A stretch of 38,954 nt of DNA from assembly GCA_937873535.1 (NCBI GenBank), contig CALMYA010000035.1, forward strand, positions 1 to 38,954. The letters run 5' to 3'. A program made the translations under genes and the position numbers. This DNA is from an uncultured bacterium. GTDB lineage: Bacteria; Patescibacteriota; Minisyncoccia; Phycocordibacterales; CAIZLB01. How positions within the stretch are numbered: position 1 is the stretch's first letter; every line of letters begins with the position of its first letter. Positions 2,800 to 25,308 of this stretch are shown here, piece by piece. Below the pieces are notes generated by a model, which saw only the letters and a list, made by a program, of their open reading frames with translations, was not told the DNA's origin and ran no database searches.

Positions 2800-3492
2800 A
2801 TGGATTTAAGCGTTTTCGAAGCCGCAGTCGGCGTCACATTTAAAGATAAAAACCTGCTCAAACAGGCGTTTATTCATCGTTCATATTTGAATGAGAACCG
2901 CTCTTCGAAACTTGAGCATAACGAGCGTATGGAATTTCTAGGTGACGCGGTACTTGAGCTTGTCATAACTGAATATTTGTATAAAAAATATCCTGAAAAA
3001 AATGAGGGTGACCTTACTGCGTATCGTTCATCGCTTGTTAACTCTGTAACACTTTCTCAGGTTGCCGAGAAAATAGGCATGAATTCATTTTTGCACTTAT
3101 CGAAGGGCGAAGCTAAAGACACCGGCCGTGCCCGCCAATTTATTCTTGCCAACACATTCGAGTCGTTCGTAGGTGCAGTATATTTAGACCAGGGCTACGA
3201 CGCTGCACAAGGGTTCATTTCACGCCAGCTTTTCGAACTTATTAACGACATTGTCGCCAACCGCGGCTTTATTGATTCTAAAAGCCTTTTTCAGGAAGAA
3301 GCTCAAGAGCGAGTTGGCATTACTCCGGCATACAAGCTTATGAAAGAAACCGGCCCCGACCACAACAAAATTTTCACTGTTGGTGTGTTTTTACGAGATG
3401 ATTTGGTTATAACAGGCGAAGGGAAGTCGAAGCAAGAAGCCGAGCAGGTTGCCGCCCAGAAGGCGCTTGAGAGCAAAAAGTGGACTGCATAA
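2800..3492 (+). CDS. rnc: Ribonuclease III
   Basis: NERMEFLGDAVLELV signature, plus a C-terminal dsRBD (GPDHNKIFTV...GEGKSKQEAEQVAA). Confidence 0.93.
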   Translation: MDLSVFEAAVGVTFKDKNLLKQAFIHRSYLNENRSSKLEHNERMEFLGDAVLELVITEYLYKKYPEKNEGDLTAYRSSLVNSVTLSQVAEKIGMNSFLHLSKGEAKDTGRARQFILANTFESFVGAVYLDQGYDAAQGFISRQLFELINDIVANRGFIDSKSLFQEEAQERVGITPAYKLMKETGPDHNKIFTVGVFLRDDLVITGEGKSKQEAEQVAAQKALESKKWTA

Positions 3493-3558: not shown

Positions 3559-5886
3559 ATGTCCTCCATCTCCCGATTAAAATCTCTTGAAATTGCCGGC
3601 TTCAAGTCTTTTGCTAAGAAAGAAACGCTTACCTTCACTTCACCTATAACGGCCATTGTGGGGCCTAACGGTTCGGGTAAGTCGAATGTTGCTGAATCGT
3701 TCAGGTTCGTGCTCGGCGAGCAGTCTATTAAAAGCATGCGCGGCAAGAAGGGTGAAGACCTTATTTTTAACGGCGGAAAAGACAGCGCCCGAGCCAACCG
3801 CGCTTCGGTTAAGGTGGTATTCGACAATTCAAGTAAGATGTTCAATCTCGATTTCAGCGAGGTTTCAATTGAACGTGTGGTGCACCGCGACGGCGTCAAC
3901 GAATATTTTATAAACGGCTCACTCGTTCGCCTTAAAGATGTGGCTGAACTTTTGGCGCATGCCAATATTGGTTCGTCTGGTCATCATATAATTTCACAAG
4001 GCGAGGCCGACAGGTTACTTAGCGCCCAGCCGCGCGAACGCCGCGAGATGATAGAAGACGCGCTAGGCCTCAAGGTTTATCAATACAGAAAAGAAGAAAG
4101 CGAGAAGAAGCTTGAAAAGACGTCGAATCATATGAAAGAAGTTGAATCGCTCCGCCGTGAAATTGCGCCACATATTAAATTTCTGAAAAAGCAGGTTGAA
4201 AAGATAGAAAAAGCTGTGACATTGCGCGCCGAGCTTACGACAATGTATCAAGAATACTTCGTGCGCGAGGCGGCATATATTAAGGACGAAAAAGAAAAGC
4301 TTGCGGGCGAGAAAGCTGCTCCTTCAGCCGAAATTCATTCTATCGAAAAAGAATTGGCGCATCACAAAAGTGTGCTCGACGCAGCAAAAGCTGCTTCAGG
4401 CCAAAGTTCGAAAAGCGATGAGCTTATAAAACTTGAAGGCGAAATTCGCGAAACGCGCCAGAAAAAAGATTCTTGCATGCGCGAACTCGGCCGACTTGAA
4501 GGTGAAATTTCATATTTAAAACGCGTTATTGAAAAGAAGTTGAAAGAGGCGAGTGAGGCCAGCACAAAGCAGGTGTATTTACGCGAGGTTGAATCGGTGG
4601 CTACAGAAATAACAGGTAAAATTGCCGCTGCCCAAAATAGCCAAAATATTGAGGAAATACGCGCTCTTTTAACTGACATTGGCGAGACACTTAGCGGTTT
4701 CGTGCATCATCACAAGCATGGTGACGGAACTTCTTCGGCAGAAAGCACGGTTAAAGGCGAAGAAACTGACATGCAGCGCATTAGCGGCGAAATGAAGGCG
4801 CTTGAAGCACGACTTTCAGAATATTCTGTAGCTGAAACATCCGAGGCTAAAAGATACTCTGATATTAAAGCGCAAATTGATCAGGAAAAAGATAAAAACG
4901 TTGAAAGCGAGAAGGCAATTCTGCGAATTATGTCTCGGCAAAGCGAACTTCACGGCCAGCTTGAAGCAATTAAAGCCCGAGAAGAGCGCGTGCGACTTGA
5001 AGAAGATGAATACAAGCGCGAGCTTCATGAAGCCGGAAGCTTGCTTGGACGTGATGCAATTGACCATGAAAAGTTTAAGATTGATAAAAACGCACACGAA
5101 GAATCCGGCCGCCAGCCTCAGCTTGAACGCCGCAGAACAATAGAAAAAACAAAAATTCGCCTCGAAGAAATGGGCGGCGGCGGAGGTGATGAAATTATGC
5201 GTGAACACAAAGAAGCCGAAGAAAGAGACGCTTTTCTTATGCGTGAACTTGAAGACTTGATGAAATCTTCAGACTCTCTTCAGGCCTTAATTAAAGATTT
5301 GAACCAGAAACTCGATGAACTTTTCAAAGAAGGAATTCGCAAGATAAACAAAGAATTCGGCAATTTCTTCAGCTTAATGTTCGGCGGGGGCGCGGCTGAA
5401 CTCCAGGTTGTGGTTGAAGAGCGCAAGAAACGCAAAAAACTTTCTGCATTAATGGGTGACGATGAAGCTGAAAAGGCAGCAATGGCCGACAGCCGTTCTG
5501 GCGCCAGCGACGACGAAGACGAAGAGCCGGAAGAGGGAATTGAAATAAATGTTAACCTCCCTCACAAGCGCATTAAAGGCCTTACCATGCTTTCCGGTGG
5601 CGAGCGCGCTCTCACTTCTATCGCCCTGCTTTTTGCTATGTCGCAGGTAAACCCTCCACCTTTTGTAATTCTAGATGAAACAGACGCTGCGCTTGATGAA
5701 GCCAACTCACGCAAATACGGCGATATGATAGAGGCACTTTCAAAGCACTCACAACTTATTTTAATAACTCACAACCGCGAAACAATGTCTCGCGCCGGCG
5801 TAATTTACGGCGTTACCATGGGCAACAGCGGCTTCTCGAAACTCCTTTCAATTGCGTTTGATGAAGCGGTAATTGTGGCGAAATAA
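3559..5886 (+). CDS. smc: SMC-family chromosome partition ATPase, unusually short (775 aa), with no recognisable hinge domain
   Basis: N-terminal head FKSFA...GPNGSGKSN...VLGEQSIKSMRG. C-terminal head LSGGERALTSIALLFA and ILDETDAALD. The centre is heptad-like coiled coil interrupted only by FVHHHKHGDGTSS. Confidence 0.85.
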   Translation: MSSISRLKSLEIAGFKSFAKKETLTFTSPITAIVGPNGSGKSNVAESFRFVLGEQSIKSMRGKKGEDLIFNGGKDSARANRASVKVVFDNSSKMFNLDFSEVSIERVVHRDGVNEYFINGSLVRLKDVAELLAHANIGSSGHHIISQGEADRLLSAQPRERREMIEDALGLKVYQYRKEESEKKLEKTSNHMKEVESLRREIAPHIKFLKKQVEKIEKAVTLRAELTTMYQEYFVREAAYIKDEKEKLAGEKAAPSAEIHSIEKELAHHKSVLDAAKAASGQSSKSDELIKLEGEIRETRQKKDSCMRELGRLEGEISYLKRVIEKKLKEASEASTKQVYLREVESVATEITGKIAAAQNSQNIEEIRALLTDIGETLSGFVHHHKHGDGTSSAESTVKGEETDMQRISGEMKALEARLSEYSVAETSEAKRYSDIKAQIDQEKDKNVESEKAILRIMSRQSELHGQLEAIKAREERVRLEEDEYKRELHEAGSLLGRDAIDHEKFKIDKNAHEESGRQPQLERRRTIEKTKIRLEEMGGGGGDEIMREHKEAEERDAFLMRELEDLMKSSDSLQALIKDLNQKLDELFKEGIRKINKEFGNFFSLMFGGGAAELQVVVEERKKRKKLSALMGDDEAEKAAMADSRSGASDDEDEEPEEGIEINVNLPHKRIKGLTMLSGGERALTSIALLFAMSQVNPPPFVILDETDAALDEANSRKYGDMIEALSKHSQLILITHNRETMSRAGVIYGVTMGNSGFSKLLSIAFDEAVIVAK

Positions 5887-5940
5887 TATTTTTATAAAAA
5901 TTTTATCTTGTTTTCATGTCGACTTGCTAGAGTGTATTTT

Positions 5941-6384
5941 ATGAACAAGGAAGATGTCGATTTTGATGATTGGAATGATCTTAAAAAGAACATAGAAAGG
6001 GTGGCGAATTCGGCCCTCTTTCATGAAAGGGAAATTTGGTGGTGTTCACTTGGAATTAACCTAGGAGTAGAGACTGACGGCAAACACGAAAGATATGAGA
6101 GGCCCGTACTAATAATCAGAAAATTTAATCGTGACGTGGCTTGGGTTTTGCCAATGACATCAAAGGTAAAAGAATCGCCATTTCACCATTCATTTGAAAT
6201 GGGTAATAAGAAACGGTCTGTAATGCTTACTCAATTAAAAACTATAAGTACTAAAAGGCTATCACGAAAAATAGGAATGATGAGAATGGATGCATTTCTA
6301 GAAGTAAAGATCAAAACCGCAATGCATCTATTAAAAAACGAAACCCCGTCTTTCGACGAGGAATCTCGGAGGCCGAAGCCATAA
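5941..6384 (+). CDS. PemK/MazF-like toxin-fold protein
   Basis: REIWWCSLGINLGVETDG...RPVLIIRKF...VLPMTSK...SVMLTQLKTISTKRL matches the MazF/PemK SH3-like core pattern. ATG 5941 is preferred over the track's non-ATG start at 5908. Confidence 0.7.
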   Translation: MNKEDVDFDDWNDLKKNIERVANSALFHEREIWWCSLGINLGVETDGKHERYERPVLIIRKFNRDVAWVLPMTSKVKESPFHHSFEMGNKKRSVMLTQLKTISTKRLSRKIGMMRMDAFLEVKIKTAMHLLKNETPSFDEESRRPKP

Positions 6385-16790: not shown

Positions 16791-17770
16791 TGTACAGTTA
16801 ACCATATGGGGTGACAGTTCTGCTAGGATTGGGGTGACTAAGCTTAACCAACCTTAATTTAAAGCATATGGCAAACAAAAAGCAGATACCGGCATACCCA
16901 GCGAAGGTTAGGCAGAAGTGGTATTTTCTGGTCGACAAGGTCGGAAAGACAGTGGATGAAGTGTGTGACATATATATGATTCCAAGGAAGACCTACTACA
17001 AATGGAAGAAAATTGATTTAGGCAGCAGGAATCATATTCCAAAGAAAGAGCACCCTGACACAAAACTTAAAGGTGAAGTGAAAGAGTTTGTAATTAAAGA
17101 GAAATTGCGAATTAACTACGGACCGAGAAAAATGAAGCTCTTGTTGAAGCGCAGATTCAATATCACTGTTTCAACTACAGCAATCTACAACCTGTACCTC
17201 AAGAAAGAGTTAATACGAAGACCCCAGAAAAAGCTTCCTTGGTACAAACCAATCAAAGAGGTGGTGATACCAGAGATGCCGGGAGAGGTGGTGCAAATGG
17301 ATGCGAAGTATGTGTGGGAAAGCGGGACACGTCGATATCAACGTACATTCATTGACATATTCACAGGCAGACAGTTTGCCACTGTTACAAACTCAATGAC
17401 TTCTGAAGATACGGTGAATGCTTTTTTGGAAGCAGAACGATATTTTCCTTTCAAAATTTTAGGTGTACAGAGTGACAACGGATCTGAAAACCGAGGAGAG
17501 TTTCATCAACATGTAGGTCAGAAAGGCATCGCTCACTACTTCATCCCGAAATCATCTCCGACATGGGATGGAGCAGTTGAAAGAGCACATGGAGTGATTG
17601 ATCAGGAATATTACCTTAATCCTACGAGACCTTGGAAAACATTGTCAGAGTATTTAGAGTTCTACAATTACGAAAGAATACATCTCGGCAAGTATTTGAA
17701 CGGAATGACACCACAAGAAAAATGGCAGCAGTGGCTATCCACAGTGTCACCCTTGAAGGTTAACTAAACA
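16791..17770 (+). mobile_element. IS481/IS3-superfamily-like insertion sequence (~980 bp) with a 5-bp target duplication
   Basis: Imperfect terminal IRs: TGTACAGTTAACCatatgGGGTGACA (16791-) and the reverse complement of 17742-17770, TGTTTAGTTAACCttcaaGGGTGACA. TGT...ACA termini. GTTTT direct repeats at 16786-16790 and 17771-17775. One DDE transposase ORF fills the element. Confidence 0.8.
16868..17767 (+). CDS. DDE (rve / integrase-core) transposase
   Basis: N-terminal HTH. Catalytic region VVQMDAKYV...QSDNGSENRGEF...WDGAVERAH (D, D, E). The ORF ends inside the right IR. Confidence 0.88.
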   Translation: MANKKQIPAYPAKVRQKWYFLVDKVGKTVDEVCDIYMIPRKTYYKWKKIDLGSRNHIPKKEHPDTKLKGEVKEFVIKEKLRINYGPRKMKLLLKRRFNITVSTTAIYNLYLKKELIRRPQKKLPWYKPIKEVVIPEMPGEVVQMDAKYVWESGTRRYQRTFIDIFTGRQFATVTNSMTSEDTVNAFLEAERYFPFKILGVQSDNGSENRGEFHQHVGQKGIAHYFIPKSSPTWDGAVERAHGVIDQEYYLNPTRPWKTLSEYLEFYNYERIHLGKYLNGMTPQEKWQQWLSTVSPLKVN

Positions 17771-18084: not shown

Positions 18085-18504
18085 ATGATGAAATATTTTA
18101 AATACGGATTTGGCCTAGGTTTTATTATTGTATTCTTAAATCCTTGGTCTTTTGAACCTATTTACTTGTGTGGAGAAAGCTGTAATTCTTGGGTAAACAT
18201 GACAAAGAGGTTTTATGGTTTTAGTGACACTTTCCCTTTCAATTGGGTAGTACCCCTTGCTTTTATGGTCACGCTCGGTCTTTTAACTGTTTTATTTCGA
18301 TATGTATTTCTTAAAATTACGGGGCGACACAAGTTAACTACTGTCGCGAGTAATGTTGAGAATTCTTTAGATAGAATACTGGTTAGTTGCCTTCTGGTTG
18401 TAGTCTTGTGTATTATGATTACTAAATTTTTTATTATGCCAACACCAGACAGACTTCCGGCAGCACCCGGAATATTTGAAGCAAGTTCCACTATAGCTAG
18501 ATAA
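18085..18504 (+). CDS. Hypothetical integral membrane protein (139 aa)
   Basis: Three to four hydrophobic segments. TATAAT lies 8 nt upstream of the ATG. AT-rich. No recognisable domain. Confidence 0.55.
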   Translation: MMKYFKYGFGLGFIIVFLNPWSFEPIYLCGESCNSWVNMTKRFYGFSDTFPFNWVVPLAFMVTLGLLTVLFRYVFLKITGRHKLTTVASNVENSLDRILVSCLLVVVLCIMITKFFIMPTPDRLPAAPGIFEASSTIAR

Positions 18505-18609: not shown

Positions 18610-19056
18610 ATGAGCAACCATCAAATTGGGTGGGAAGCCTTTACCCACATGATAGAGAAGCAGCACCACTTTAAAGGAGGGCTGGTCACGCAGAGAATTA
18701 CGCACGGTATGGAAGAGTTCATAGGGCCTGTCTCAGACATCTTTGTTGATGACGCCGGAGCGTCAATTTATACAGGTACCTGTATCTGTACCGGCAGCCT
18801 AAGGCCAGAACCTCGCCATGTCGAGCCTCATGCTTTTGCGGTTATCGACGCTGGAGGATTCAACGACTTCTACCTGTATGCGGACCACGAAATACTGGTC
18901 TGTGTTATGGGAGAACATGTCGGCAAAAAGACTCTTGTCCACCTGTATCCATCGGGCCATCCGCGCGAAATAATACTTCGTCGCGAACTCGAAAGAGCAC
19001 GGGTAGCTTCTGTCGAACAATCCACCGAACCTGCCCTCAAACACGCAATTGCCTGA
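18610..19056 (+). CDS. Hypothetical protein (148 aa), SD-led orphan
   Basis: GGAAGGAGACAAC-ATG leader, nearly identical to that of ORF 813..1115. Terminator-like CCGC...GCGGGCTTTTGTTTT follows. No recognisable domain. Confidence 0.6.
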   Translation: MSNHQIGWEAFTHMIEKQHHFKGGLVTQRITHGMEEFIGPVSDIFVDDAGASIYTGTCICTGSLRPEPRHVEPHAFAVIDAGGFNDFYLYADHEILVCVMGEHVGKKTLVHLYPSGHPREIILRRELERARVASVEQSTEPALKHAIA

Positions 19057-23488: not shown

Positions 23489-23851
23489 ATGAACCTACGA
23501 GAAGACATTCCACAACTAGAGTTGCCGCCCGATGAAAACGCTCCAATAGGTGAAAAAGTTCGTTGGGCAATTGATATTGGTCTTGCTTCTCCGAACGACT
23601 TTACACGAGAACAGGCGGCAGCGATACTTGATACTTCGGATGAAATACTTAAATCTGAAGATCTGGCACAATTGGAAAGTCGGATGGAAACAGACATGGA
23701 TAAAACTGTACAATTTCGAATTGCTTATGCTTTGTATAAATGCGGATACCGCACGCAGGAAGTGGAGGAAAAACTAGAAGATGCTTTGAATGCCGGAACT
23801 GACGCAGAGCTCATCAAGCTCATAAAAGCAGTCTATCGCCCTGCTAAATAA
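23489..23851 (+). CDS. Small HEAT-like protein (120 aa), paralog of 8576..9013
   Basis: VRWAIDIGLASPND...TSDEIL...VQFRIAYALYKCG aligns with LEWALDMGLSSDDQ...MSDMPL...VRIRAAMALRKRG of the other ORF. Confidence 0.6.
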   Translation: MNLREDIPQLELPPDENAPIGEKVRWAIDIGLASPNDFTREQAAAILDTSDEILKSEDLAQLESRMETDMDKTVQFRIAYALYKCGYRTQEVEEKLEDALNAGTDAELIKLIKAVYRPAK

Positions 23852-23865
23852 AATTTATATTTGAT

Positions 23866-24660
23866 ATGTCAGATTCCGCATCCTTCACAATTAAAACAGA
23901 AGTTTTTGAAGGGCCGCTCGACCTCCTTCTTACACTTATTGAAAAACGCAAGCTTTTTATAAGCGATATTTCAATTGCGAAAGTAACCGACGAATATATA
24001 GAATACGTTAACCGCCTGGCCGACTACTCGCTCGGCGACCGCACGCAATTCATATATCTTGCCTCAACGCTCCTTCTTATAAAGGCAAAGTCGCTCCTTC
24101 CTAACCTTGAACTTACTGAAGAAGAGCAGAGTGACATCGGCCTACTTGAACAGCGCCTCAAAGAGCTGGCTGTTATGCGAAAAGCCGGGGCTGAAATACA
24201 GAGACAGTTCGGCATGCATATTCTATATCCTCGGGGTGATCTTCATACCGAAATTCACGTCTTTGCGCCGAGCAAAGACGCTTCCATGCAAAGTCTTTCC
24301 GAAGCTATGAACCGTGTCATCGGCGCATTGCCTAAAAAAGTTGAGCGTCCGAAAATTATGGTGCAGAAAACTGTAAGCCTTGAAGAAACAATTGAGAAGC
24401 TTACGGAGAGAATCAAAACTGCCGTGCGTATGAGTTTTGCCGAATTCAGCGGTAAACACAGTAAAACTGGCAATGGCGGCGGAAAAACCGATCCCGGCCG
24501 AACCCTTGAAGAACATCGAGGCGCCCGCGTCGAAGTCATAGTCAGCTTTCTTGCCATGTTAGAACTGGTAAAACAAGGAGTGCTCGATGCAAAGCAGGAA
24601 GGTCTCTTTGATGAAATTCACATGGAAAGCCAAGATTTGGGAGTTCCAAGGTATAATTAA
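23866..24660 (+). CDS. scpA: Segregation and condensation protein A (kleisin)
   Basis: FEGPLDLLLTLIEKRKLFISDISIAKVTDEY is the ScpA signature N-terminus. Confidence 0.9.
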   Translation: MSDSASFTIKTEVFEGPLDLLLTLIEKRKLFISDISIAKVTDEYIEYVNRLADYSLGDRTQFIYLASTLLLIKAKSLLPNLELTEEEQSDIGLLEQRLKELAVMRKAGAEIQRQFGMHILYPRGDLHTEIHVFAPSKDASMQSLSEAMNRVIGALPKKVERPKIMVQKTVSLEETIEKLTERIKTAVRMSFAEFSGKHSKTGNGGGKTDPGRTLEEHRGARVEVIVSFLAMLELVKQGVLDAKQEGLFDEIHMESQDLGVPRYN

Positions 24661-24666
24661 ACTCAC

Positions 24667-25308
24667 ATGCAACCAGAACATTCAAATTCAAATCTCGAGC
24701 ACATTGTAGAAGCCCTGCTTTTCTGGAAAGGGGAGCCGCTTTCAATAAAAGAGATTGCCAAAAGCCTTGCTGTAAAAGAAGACGACGTCGTCGCGGCAGC
24801 CGACGCGCTTGAACAATCGCTTTCAACTCGCGGCATTACGCTTTTACGTAAAAACACTATCGACAAACAAGGGAACGTGAACATGAGCGACCAAGAGTTG
24901 ATGTTAGCCACCTCAAAAGAGGCGAGTGCGCTCATTGAAAAGCTCACCAAGGAAGAACTTTCAAAAGATCTCGGCAAAGCGTCGCTTGAAACTTTGGCTA
25001 TTGTACTCTACAAGGGGCCGGTAAAGCGAAGCGAAATAGACAATATCCGCGGCGTTAATTCTACTTTTATTTTAAGAAACTTACTTATTCGCGGGCTTGT
25101 AGACAAACGCCCCGACCCGCGCGACAGCCGCGCATCGCTGTACAGTGCCTCATTCGATCTTATGTCGCACCTCGGTGTTTCAAAAATTGAAGACCTGCCA
25201 AATTTCGCCGAAGTTAAGGAAGAAATACAAAAGTTCAATGAGCATTCAGCTGAACTGCAAAAACCTGAGGCGGCCTCTGAAGAGATGGCACAGGAATCTT
25301 CCAGTTAA
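24667..25308 (+). CDS. scpB: Segregation and condensation protein B
   Basis: VEALLFWKGEPLSIKEIAKSL and ETLAIVLYKGPVKRSEIDNIRGV (tandem winged helix). TATAAT lies 9 nt upstream of the ATG. Confidence 0.9.
   Translation: MQPEHSNSNLEHIVEALLFWKGEPLSIKEIAKSLAVKEDDVVAAADALEQSLSTRGITLLRKNTIDKQGNVNMSDQELMLATSKEASALIEKLTKEELSKDLGKASLETLAIVLYKGPVKRSEIDNIRGVNSTFILRNLLIRGLVDKRPDPRDSRASLYSASFDLMSHLGVSKIEDLPNFAEVKEEIQKFNEHSAELQKPEAASEEMAQESSS

Follow-up and report, generated by a model that had tools for sequence, protein, structure and literature searches.

What kind of protein is a bacterial Smc without a hinge, and what would join two of its chains? The question is raised by an open reading frame (ORF) of 775 amino acids (aa) on contig CALMYA010000035.1 of an uncultured bacterium of the Patescibacteriota (GenBank assembly GCA_937873535.1); the whole stretch of DNA analyzed, 38,954 nucleotides long, is called the window here. 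The hinge is treated as a defining part of SMC proteins, being their constitutive dimer interface and a proposed DNA gate and DNA-binding site. A first-pass annotation, made from the letters of the window, had read the gene as an Smc lacking a hinge and had suggested that a cluster of histidines at the tip of its coiled coil joins the chains like the metal hook of Rad50. Our analysis bears out the first part of this reading, but not the second. We favor the explanation that the gene is an ordinary Smc ortholog of the Paceibacteria (Parcubacteria, candidate phyla radiation), in a lineage-wide form that is missing the hinge and about one third of each arm, and we put the probability of this explanation as a whole at roughly 0.6.

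Identity of the gene and absence of the hinge

The gene and the two halves of its ATPase head are placed as follows.

3559..5886, forward strand: smc, encoding the 775-aa hinge-less Smc (ORF and translation; SMC_N; TIGR02168; PDB and Foldseek matches)
3559..4071, forward strand: N-terminal half of the ATPase head, aa 1-171, with Walker A and Q-loop (AlphaFold2, motifs, alignments)
5383..5886, forward strand: C-terminal half of the head, aa 609-775, with signature, Walker B, D-loop and H-loop (AlphaFold2, motifs)

Translation of the ORF gave the expected 775 aa, and the canonical head motifs that had been recognized at first sight belong to a full ABC/SMC ATPase set. The N-terminal half carries Walker A (GPNGSGKS, aa 35) and the Q-loop (SQG, aa 146), and the C-terminal half carries the signature (LSGGE, aa 678), Walker B (FVILDE, aa 702), the D-loop (DAALD, aa 709) and the H-loop (THN, aa 737). 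In alignments of relatives these motifs are invariant columns. The Pfam model SMC_N matched aa 7-760 with E=1.2e-63, and the best NCBIfam family was TIGR02168 (SMC_prok_B) with 531.6 bits, slightly below its cutoff of 567.35. The top PDB sequence matches were the Smc heads of Bacillus subtilis and Geobacillus (4.8e-107), while Foldseek with the full-length model placed 5xei first (6e-22), a structure of the Pyrococcus Smc head that includes coiled coil and joint. A PDB search with the arms only (aa 172-608) picked up only the joint of B. subtilis Smc (E 0.8) and, by chance, an S-layer protein; nothing in it matched a hinge, a Rad50 hook or RecN. The joint was aligned by phmmer with 5xg3 residues 216-301, which set KIRLEEMGGGGGDEIMREHKEAEERDAFL of the window Smc against KLAIEELGTVNLGSIDEFERVNERYKFL of B. 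subtilis Smc.

The joint, the upstream gene and the genes for the partner subunits lie at these positions.

5110..5256, forward strand: joint, aa 518-566, RRRxIEKxKIRLEEMGGGGGDE...EAEERDAFL (phmmer to the B. subtilis joint KLAIEELGTVNLGSIDEFERVNERYKFL; conservation)
2800..3492, forward strand: rnc (RNase III), directly upstream of smc (Pfam)
23866..24660, forward strand: scpA (kleisin), a full-length match to PF02616 (3.6e-22, profile positions 1-228 of 232)
24667..25308, forward strand: scpB (PF04079, 1.5e-33)

The Pfam matches to ScpA and ScpB agree with the earlier statement that both are encoded in the window. The order rnc-smc matches the arrangement in B. subtilis, which argues that the gene occupies the canonical smc locus. 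Related smc loci were read with a flank of 4 kb each. Among 80 such loci, Rnc was encoded upstream on the same strand at 64 and NusB at 63, and RNase R downstream on the opposite strand at 49.

The short length and the missing hinge recall RecN or SbcC, the TIGR02168 score lies under its cutoff, and relatives are called "AAA family ATPase" in NCBI; a repair-type SMC-like paralog of either kind, or an assembly or pseudogene artifact, might be suspected from these features. Such an origin is hardly credible, as the RecN model TIGR00634 gave 45.9 bits against a cutoff of 407.85 and the Rad50 models 39-48 bits against cutoffs of 700-1087, and the Smc-type joint, the rnc-smc synteny and ScpAB all favor Smc. 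The protein resembles Rad50/SbcC in its SMC-like head and in an antiparallel coiled coil whose apex carries no globular hinge, but the head similarity is weak (48 bits), conserved metal ligands are lacking in the family, and an Mre11/SbcD-type partner was not found among the ORFs scanned, which are those of the window only. RecN is likewise an SMC-like ATPase without a hinge, and in the Deinococcus RecN structure dimerization takes place through the end of the coiled coil; the window Smc differs from it in its much longer arms, its Smc-type joint and its ScpAB partners. An artifact is opposed by the intact ORF of the same form in hundreds of assemblies. The protein is filed as a hinge-less Smc ortholog, not as Rad50, SbcC or RecN, because its head, arm, joint, partners and synteny fit, and only the hinge and the equivalog cutoff do not.

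The lack of a hinge was confirmed in the window Smc, as SMC_hinge (PF06470) gave no match in Pfam even at E<=10. This domain was absent from the precomputed domains of about 240 homologs, and it was not among the families listed in a Pfam scan of 37 relatives. The 120 best database homologs were 57-81% identical to the window Smc and 646-841 aa long; coverage of the query was 97-100% for nearly all and 79-92% for some shorter ones, several were on contigs of 0.4-0.8 Mb, and their source names were Paceibacterota, Parcubacteria, Taylorbacteria and Patescibacteria. Among cluster representatives at 50% identity, the best 150 were 42-57% identical (643-782 aa), and the best 120 matches of a search seeded with the distant member P0247 (42% identical) were 698-793 aa long, one of them on a 1.0-Mb contig. 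A hinge-bearing relative was found neither with P0247 nor among the 150 representatives, a range that did not reach the boundary to canonical Smc. Relatives are encoded in at least 585 stretches of GTDB species representatives; in the best 80, the match to aa 7-775 takes up 2.2-2.4 kb, and their names include Taylor-, Kaiser- and Zambryskibacteria and Minisyncoccia. In this survey of length, which the first-pass annotation had called for, all relatives inspected were about 640-850 aa and had no hinge.

The hinge-less form is carried by no fewer than 585 GTDB species representatives and 150 protein clusters (50% identity). A bacterial radiation of very large size thus appears to have, as its only recognizable Smc-ScpAB, one that is hinge-free and has arms shorter by one third. 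Misassembly or collapse of a full-length smc was ruled out, because the same short architecture recurs in hundreds of independent assemblies, in some on contigs of 0.5-1.0 Mb. As for the labels of these records, many metagenome-assembled genomes with this type of Smc (among them those of loci L001, L005, L007 and L010) are titled "uncultured Candidatus Saccharibacteria bacterium"; all belong to a single submission series, and the unconfirmed label may be a generic placeholder that does not denote true Saccharibacteria. In NCBI, the orthologs P0016-P0018, P0037, P0051, P0065, P0066, P0074, P0105, P0109 and others bear the names "AAA family ATPase" or "hypothetical protein"; at JGI the same Smc orthologs are called chromosome segregation protein. 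Together with the TIGR02168 score under the cutoff, such record names suggest that Smc is likely under-annotated across Paceibacteria genomes, and in candidate-phyla-radiation genomes it may be called too rarely.

In the literature on SMC hinges and the candidate phyla radiation, we found no description of a hinge-less Smc of Patescibacteria. The concept has a precedent in a report of an abundant oceanic "hinge-less" SMC clade, known from metagenomes and annotated as Actinomycetes and as COG1196/SMC (Sussfeld et al. 2025, PMC12153180). According to that report, the clade lacks CxxC, branches near Actinobacteria and is read as a lineage-specific loss of the hinge (PMC12153180). By description, which is the level at which the two were compared, it shares with the Paceibacterial Smc an SMC head with an antiparallel coiled coil and the absence of both hinge and CxxC. 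The oceanic clade differs in being marine and Actinobacteria-like, whereas the family of the window bears the names Paceibacterota and Parcubacteria. ScpAB or synteny context is not reported for it in the passages on the clade that were consulted (PMC12153180). The rule of 80% mutual coverage given there would probably have kept 750-aa proteins of the candidate phyla radiation from clustering with seeds of 1,180 aa.

The arm and the histidine cluster at its apex

Between the two head halves, the following parts of the arm were distinguished.

4072..4719, forward strand: N-arm helix, aa 172-387, with breaks at 282-283, 335-340 and 361-363 (AlphaFold2)
4699..4719, forward strand: apex motif F381-V-H-H-H-K-H387, last turn of the N-arm helix (AlphaFold2; alignment)
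4720..4740, forward strand: apex loop GDGTSSA, aa 388-394 (pLDDT<50, full-length model)
4741..5382, forward strand: C-arm helix, aa 395-608, with breaks at 497-517 and 539-542 (AlphaFold2)

Two AlphaFold2 models were used: one of the full-length protein, built on a 116-sequence alignment, with a mean predicted local distance difference test score (pLDDT) of 73, and one of aa 284-500 alone, with a pLDDT of 88.5. The continuous coiled coil that had been proposed between the heads appears as helices with short breaks over aa 172-608, and neither model contains a globular domain between the arms. The N-arm is composed of helices at aa 172-281, 284-334, 341-360 and 364-387. The C-arm runs as a helix from 395 to 496, continues through short elements to a helix at 518-538, and after the GGGG break at 539-542 ends in a helix at 543-608. 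In the fragment model the tip is a plain antiparallel helical hairpin with its turn at aa 389-390 and a returning helix that is continuous over 109 residues. Foldseek with the arm fragment gave no match at E<=0.001, the best being generic antiparallel coiled coils (E 0.04).

In many relatives among P0004-P0044, the N-arm break at aa 358-363 (4630-4647) holds insertions of up to about 20-30 residues, for example LDGSGEYGGVDIAERIS. The C-arm helix that faces this break stays continuous, with the nearly invariant E426 at the core position opposite.

The two arms are 216 (N-arm) and 214 (C-arm) residues long. At a coiled-coil rise of about 0.148 nm per residue, an arm of about 215 residues would measure about 32 nm. 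The arms of B. subtilis Smc have about 340 residues (PMC5344682) and a length of about 47-49 nm (PMC5344682; PMC5526789). The published modes of arm length are 163, 238 and 341 aa (PMC5344682); the value of about 215 falls between them, and, as it hinges on how the boundaries are defined, no inference is drawn from it. Relative to the B. subtilis type, the window Smc thus shares head sequence and fold, ATPase motifs, neck and joint, antiparallel arm, rnc-smc order and ScpA/ScpB. It differs in lacking the hinge, in arms shorter by about one third, in a basic-acidic insertion in the head and in a TIGR02168 score under the cutoff.

When shortened to particular lengths, the arms of B. subtilis Smc are still tolerated (Burmann et al. 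2017, PMC5344682), and the variant Smc(Zh), in which the hinge is swapped for the zinc hook of Pyrococcus furiosus Rad50, is still functional (PMC5344682). This functional swap indicates that the hinge-specific functions are dispensable in B. subtilis, though a dimerizer is kept. Like the engineered Mini-Smc and Smc(Zh), the family has short arms and no native hinge, features compatible with function in B. subtilis (PMC5344682), and it looks like a natural counterpart of the Mini-Smc and zinc-hook chimeras. In contrast to these constructs, which keep either a hinge or a CxxC hook, the natural family has neither. A compact Smc of 750 aa should also suit structural and single-molecule work.

Each chain is predicted to fold back on itself; its two termini make up one complete ABC ATPase head, with an antiparallel coiled-coil arm of two helices of about 215 residues ending in a simple hairpin. 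A domain-swapped dimer has also been considered, in which the N-arm helix would pair with the C-arm helix of the partner and the crossing apex loops would act as the hinge of a two-armed molecule. Such a swap would give a constitutive dimer without a hinge domain, would tolerate a variable apex loop, and fits the near-equal lengths of the arms. It is nevertheless very improbable: canonical SMC arms are established to be intramolecular, with which the background given in PMC5344682 agrees, and AlphaFold2 gives a confident intrachain hairpin, although a monomer run cannot reveal a swap.

The interval 4695-4770, to which the first-pass annotation had drawn attention, was correctly placed and corresponds to aa 380-404; on the opposite strand, no ORF of at least 60 aa overlaps it, the nearest ending at 4679 and beginning at 4816. 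The motif FVHHHKH (aa 381-387) does stand at the midpoint of the arm, as had been noticed. F381 is encoded at 4699-4701, HHHKH (aa 383-387) at 4705-4719 and E401-E402 at 4759-4764. Since AlphaFold2 places the turn just after aa 387, the N-arm helix ends in the histidine cluster, which makes up its last turn.

Conservation at the apex was counted in an alignment of 341 non-identical family members, and the consensus is F-[ILV]-x-x-[H/N]-[K/R]. Position 381 is F in 284 members and L in 31, and the phenylalanine is invariant in 116 close relatives; position 382 is I, L or V in 90%. At position 383, E, S or Q is commonest, and position 384 is a gap in 56 members, H in 55 and Y in 40. At position 385, 145 members have H and 52 have N, with a gap in 50; position 386 is K in 160 and R in 50. 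HHHKH is limited to the window Smc and its closest relatives P0002, P0003 and P0022, and FVQYHKH is carried by a somewhat larger subclade; distant members have apices such as FLEHHKN, FIETHSSH, FISKNK, FVESNR and FISEKK. The apex window is 22 residues long at the median and 50 at most, and the loop after the motif is of low complexity and variable length.

The heptad a/d positions are 364, 367, 371, 374, 378, 381 and (385) on the N-arm, and 405, 408, 412, 415, 419 and 422 on the returning helix. By this regular pattern, F381 falls on a d position of the core and residue 385 on a terminal a position, and conserved acidic residues at 401-404 of the returning helix lie opposite the motif. F381 and residue 382 may plug the end of the coiled coil, and [H/N]385-[K/R]386 may cap the helix by clasping the acidic residues 401-404. 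The histidine cluster is a lineage-specific decoration of this conserved hairpin cap.

A rival reading is a metal hook confined to the sublineage of the window: H385 and H387, with or without H383 and H384, of two chains would bind Zn or Ni and join the tips as in Rad50. Four histidines within five residues occurred in 0.13% of shuffles of the window Smc (21 His in 775 aa; p ~0.001), which makes the cluster compositionally non-random in this one sequence. H385-K-H387 recurs in about 30 of the closest relatives (FVQYHKH or FVHHHKH), the cluster sits exactly at the hairpin tip in both models, and a zinc hook can stand in functionally for the Smc hinge (PMC5344682). Against this, the apex window holds no histidine in 137 members and a single one in 93, while four or more are found in 13 and an HHH run in 10. 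Position 385 is N or a gap in the numbers given above, CxxC was found at the apex in none of the 341, and the window Smc has a single cysteine, C306. Neither the arms-only PDB search nor Foldseek brought out any sequence or structural likeness to Rad50 hooks. As the need for a dimerizer is family-wide, a device of a small subclade is not the general answer to the loss of the hinge. The Rad50-like hook as the dimerization device was therefore abandoned, since the cluster is not conserved in orthologs, the observation by which the first-pass annotation itself had proposed to judge it; even for the sublineage alone, we consider a metal hook improbable.

The middle of the arm and the joining of two chains

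Beyond the neck, the outside of the arm is best conserved not at the tip but in two mid-arm stretches, one on each helix.

4444..4509, forward strand: N-arm part of the mid-arm module, aa 296-317, with R300, K303, D304, R308, G311, R312, E314 and G315 (column counts, 341 members)
4879..4962, forward strand: C-arm part of the mid-arm module, aa 441-468, with E451, K452, L455, I457, E463 and L464 (column counts)

On the N-arm side, G311 is kept in 318 members, G315 in 319, R308 in 296 and E314 in 305. On the C-arm side, 96% of the members have a large hydrophobic residue at 455, an outer b position, and the adjoining E451 is kept in 306. The hydrophobic register 296a-299d-303a-306d-310a-313d-317a places D304, R308, G311 and G315 in a stripe opposite the core, on the b/f face. 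Conservation was measured as the mean over the outward heptad positions b, c and f. It was highest in the neck of the N-arm (0.66), which in canonical Smc is the established ScpA-binding site, and 0.47 in the neck of the C-arm. It was 0.30 in the stretch from neck to mid-arm, 0.43 (aa 284-334) and 0.45 (aa 441-496) in the mid-arm, and 0.25 (aa 341-387) and 0.21 (aa 395-440) in the distal hairpin. The outer faces, with their stripe of glycines and an exposed hydrophobic residue, suggest close packing against a partner outside the two-helix coil. The most economical partner would seem to be the other Smc arm, but it could equally be a different one.

We propose that the protein works with the ScpA and ScpB of the window in a 2:1:2 Smc-ScpAB complex, in which the heads of the two Smc chains would be joined by ATP and by an asymmetric ScpA bridge. 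The far end would be held, if at all, by a lateral arm-arm contact through the mid-arm module (R300-D304-R308-G311xxxG315 with E441-L468); the small hydrophobic tip may contribute to this contact, and a metal hook would not be involved. Within the overall picture, a distal link made of the lateral mid-arm contact and the hydrophobic tip is our preference, held tentatively and at somewhat less than even odds, on the strength of the conservation pattern.

Alternatively, the arms may be open-ended, with the chains joined only by ATP engagement of the heads and by the ScpA bridge, so that the complex would work as a clamp and would not close into a tripartite ring. Open arms would fit three observations: conservation along the arm is lowest on the surface of the distal hairpin (b/c/f 0.21-0.25), the apex loop differs widely among relatives in both length and composition, and full-length ScpA and ScpB are available as a head bridge. 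On the other hand, nearly all members keep F381 and a hydrophobic residue at 382 of the tip, the outer face of the mid-arm is conserved, and all functional B. subtilis constructs reported keep constitutive dimerization by hinge or hook (PMC5344682). We regard open arms as rather unlikely.

A broader statement would cover both arrangements: the Paceibacterial Smc-ScpAB may be a natural minimal condensin without a dimerizer of the hinge or hook type, having either a lateral join through the mid-arm module, which would be new to the field (the stripe against L455/M458 of the partner), or open arms and so no closed tripartite ring. We hold this to be possible rather than probable. If it is true that neither type of dimerizer is present, the family would provide a natural test of the need for a hinge in DNA loading and loop extrusion.

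Several points weigh against our account. The dimer interface is proposed from sequence conservation, and it is by hydrophobic periodicity, not by coordinates, that G311 and G315 were assigned to the outer face. The mid-arm module could bind another partner or stabilize the arm. In the full-length model the head has a low pLDDT, 36-55 for aa 1-70. The relatives were viewed at the smc locus and its flanks, a view that does not cover a hinge-bearing second SMC elsewhere in the genome. Finally, histidine makes up about 5% of the apex compared with about 2% of the arms, a moderate enrichment throughout the family, and some role for a histidine at 385 is therefore likely.

The head insertion and the neighboring genes

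The C-terminal half of the head contains one further element.

5413..5532, forward strand: disordered head insertion, aa 619-658 (pLDDT<50, AlphaFold2)

The acidic run SDDEDEEPEE that had been noticed before the signature motif is present at aa 649-658 and forms the end of this insertion of 40 residues, which begins with the basic run ERKKRKK. The insertion follows a GGGxAxL strand and is itself followed by the signature motif. It occurs throughout the family at a median length of 34 residues; its first 14 positions hold a median of 6 K/R and its last 14 a median of 7 D/E. Where the Paceibacterial Smc has this basic-acidic insertion of about 30 residues, only about 11 are present in B. subtilis Smc. 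As to its role, contact with DNA or auto-inhibition would be our guesses.

Upstream of rnc, an ORF of 306 aa at 1709-2629 encodes a NusB domain (aa 7-136) fused to a NUDIX hydrolase domain (aa 177-285). By tblastn, a homolog of this ORF lies upstream of rnc-smc on the same strand at 63 of the 80 related loci, a count that does not imply coverage of both domains. Directly downstream of smc, an ORF of 158 aa with a TTG start at 5908-6384 encodes a PemK/MazF-like toxin; its homolog was present at only 1 of the 80 related loci, and it therefore looks like a recent insertion.

Directly upstream of scpA lies an acidic ORF of 120 aa (23489-23851) without a Pfam match. It has one homolog (72% identical) in 5.8 billion proteins, and a family-wide condensin subunit was ruled out for this orphan with a single homolog.

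Elsewhere in the window, the ORF at 16868-17767, with an rve integrase core and an IS630-like helix-turn-helix, is probably an insertion-sequence transposase, and it is followed by two small ORFs without a Pfam match (18085-18504 and 18610-19056). On the reverse strand, 14105-15412 encodes a TsaD/Kae1-family protein of 435 aa with a Pfam match in three stretches. It seems longer than a typical TsaD, and the greater length suggests insertions or an N-terminal extension.

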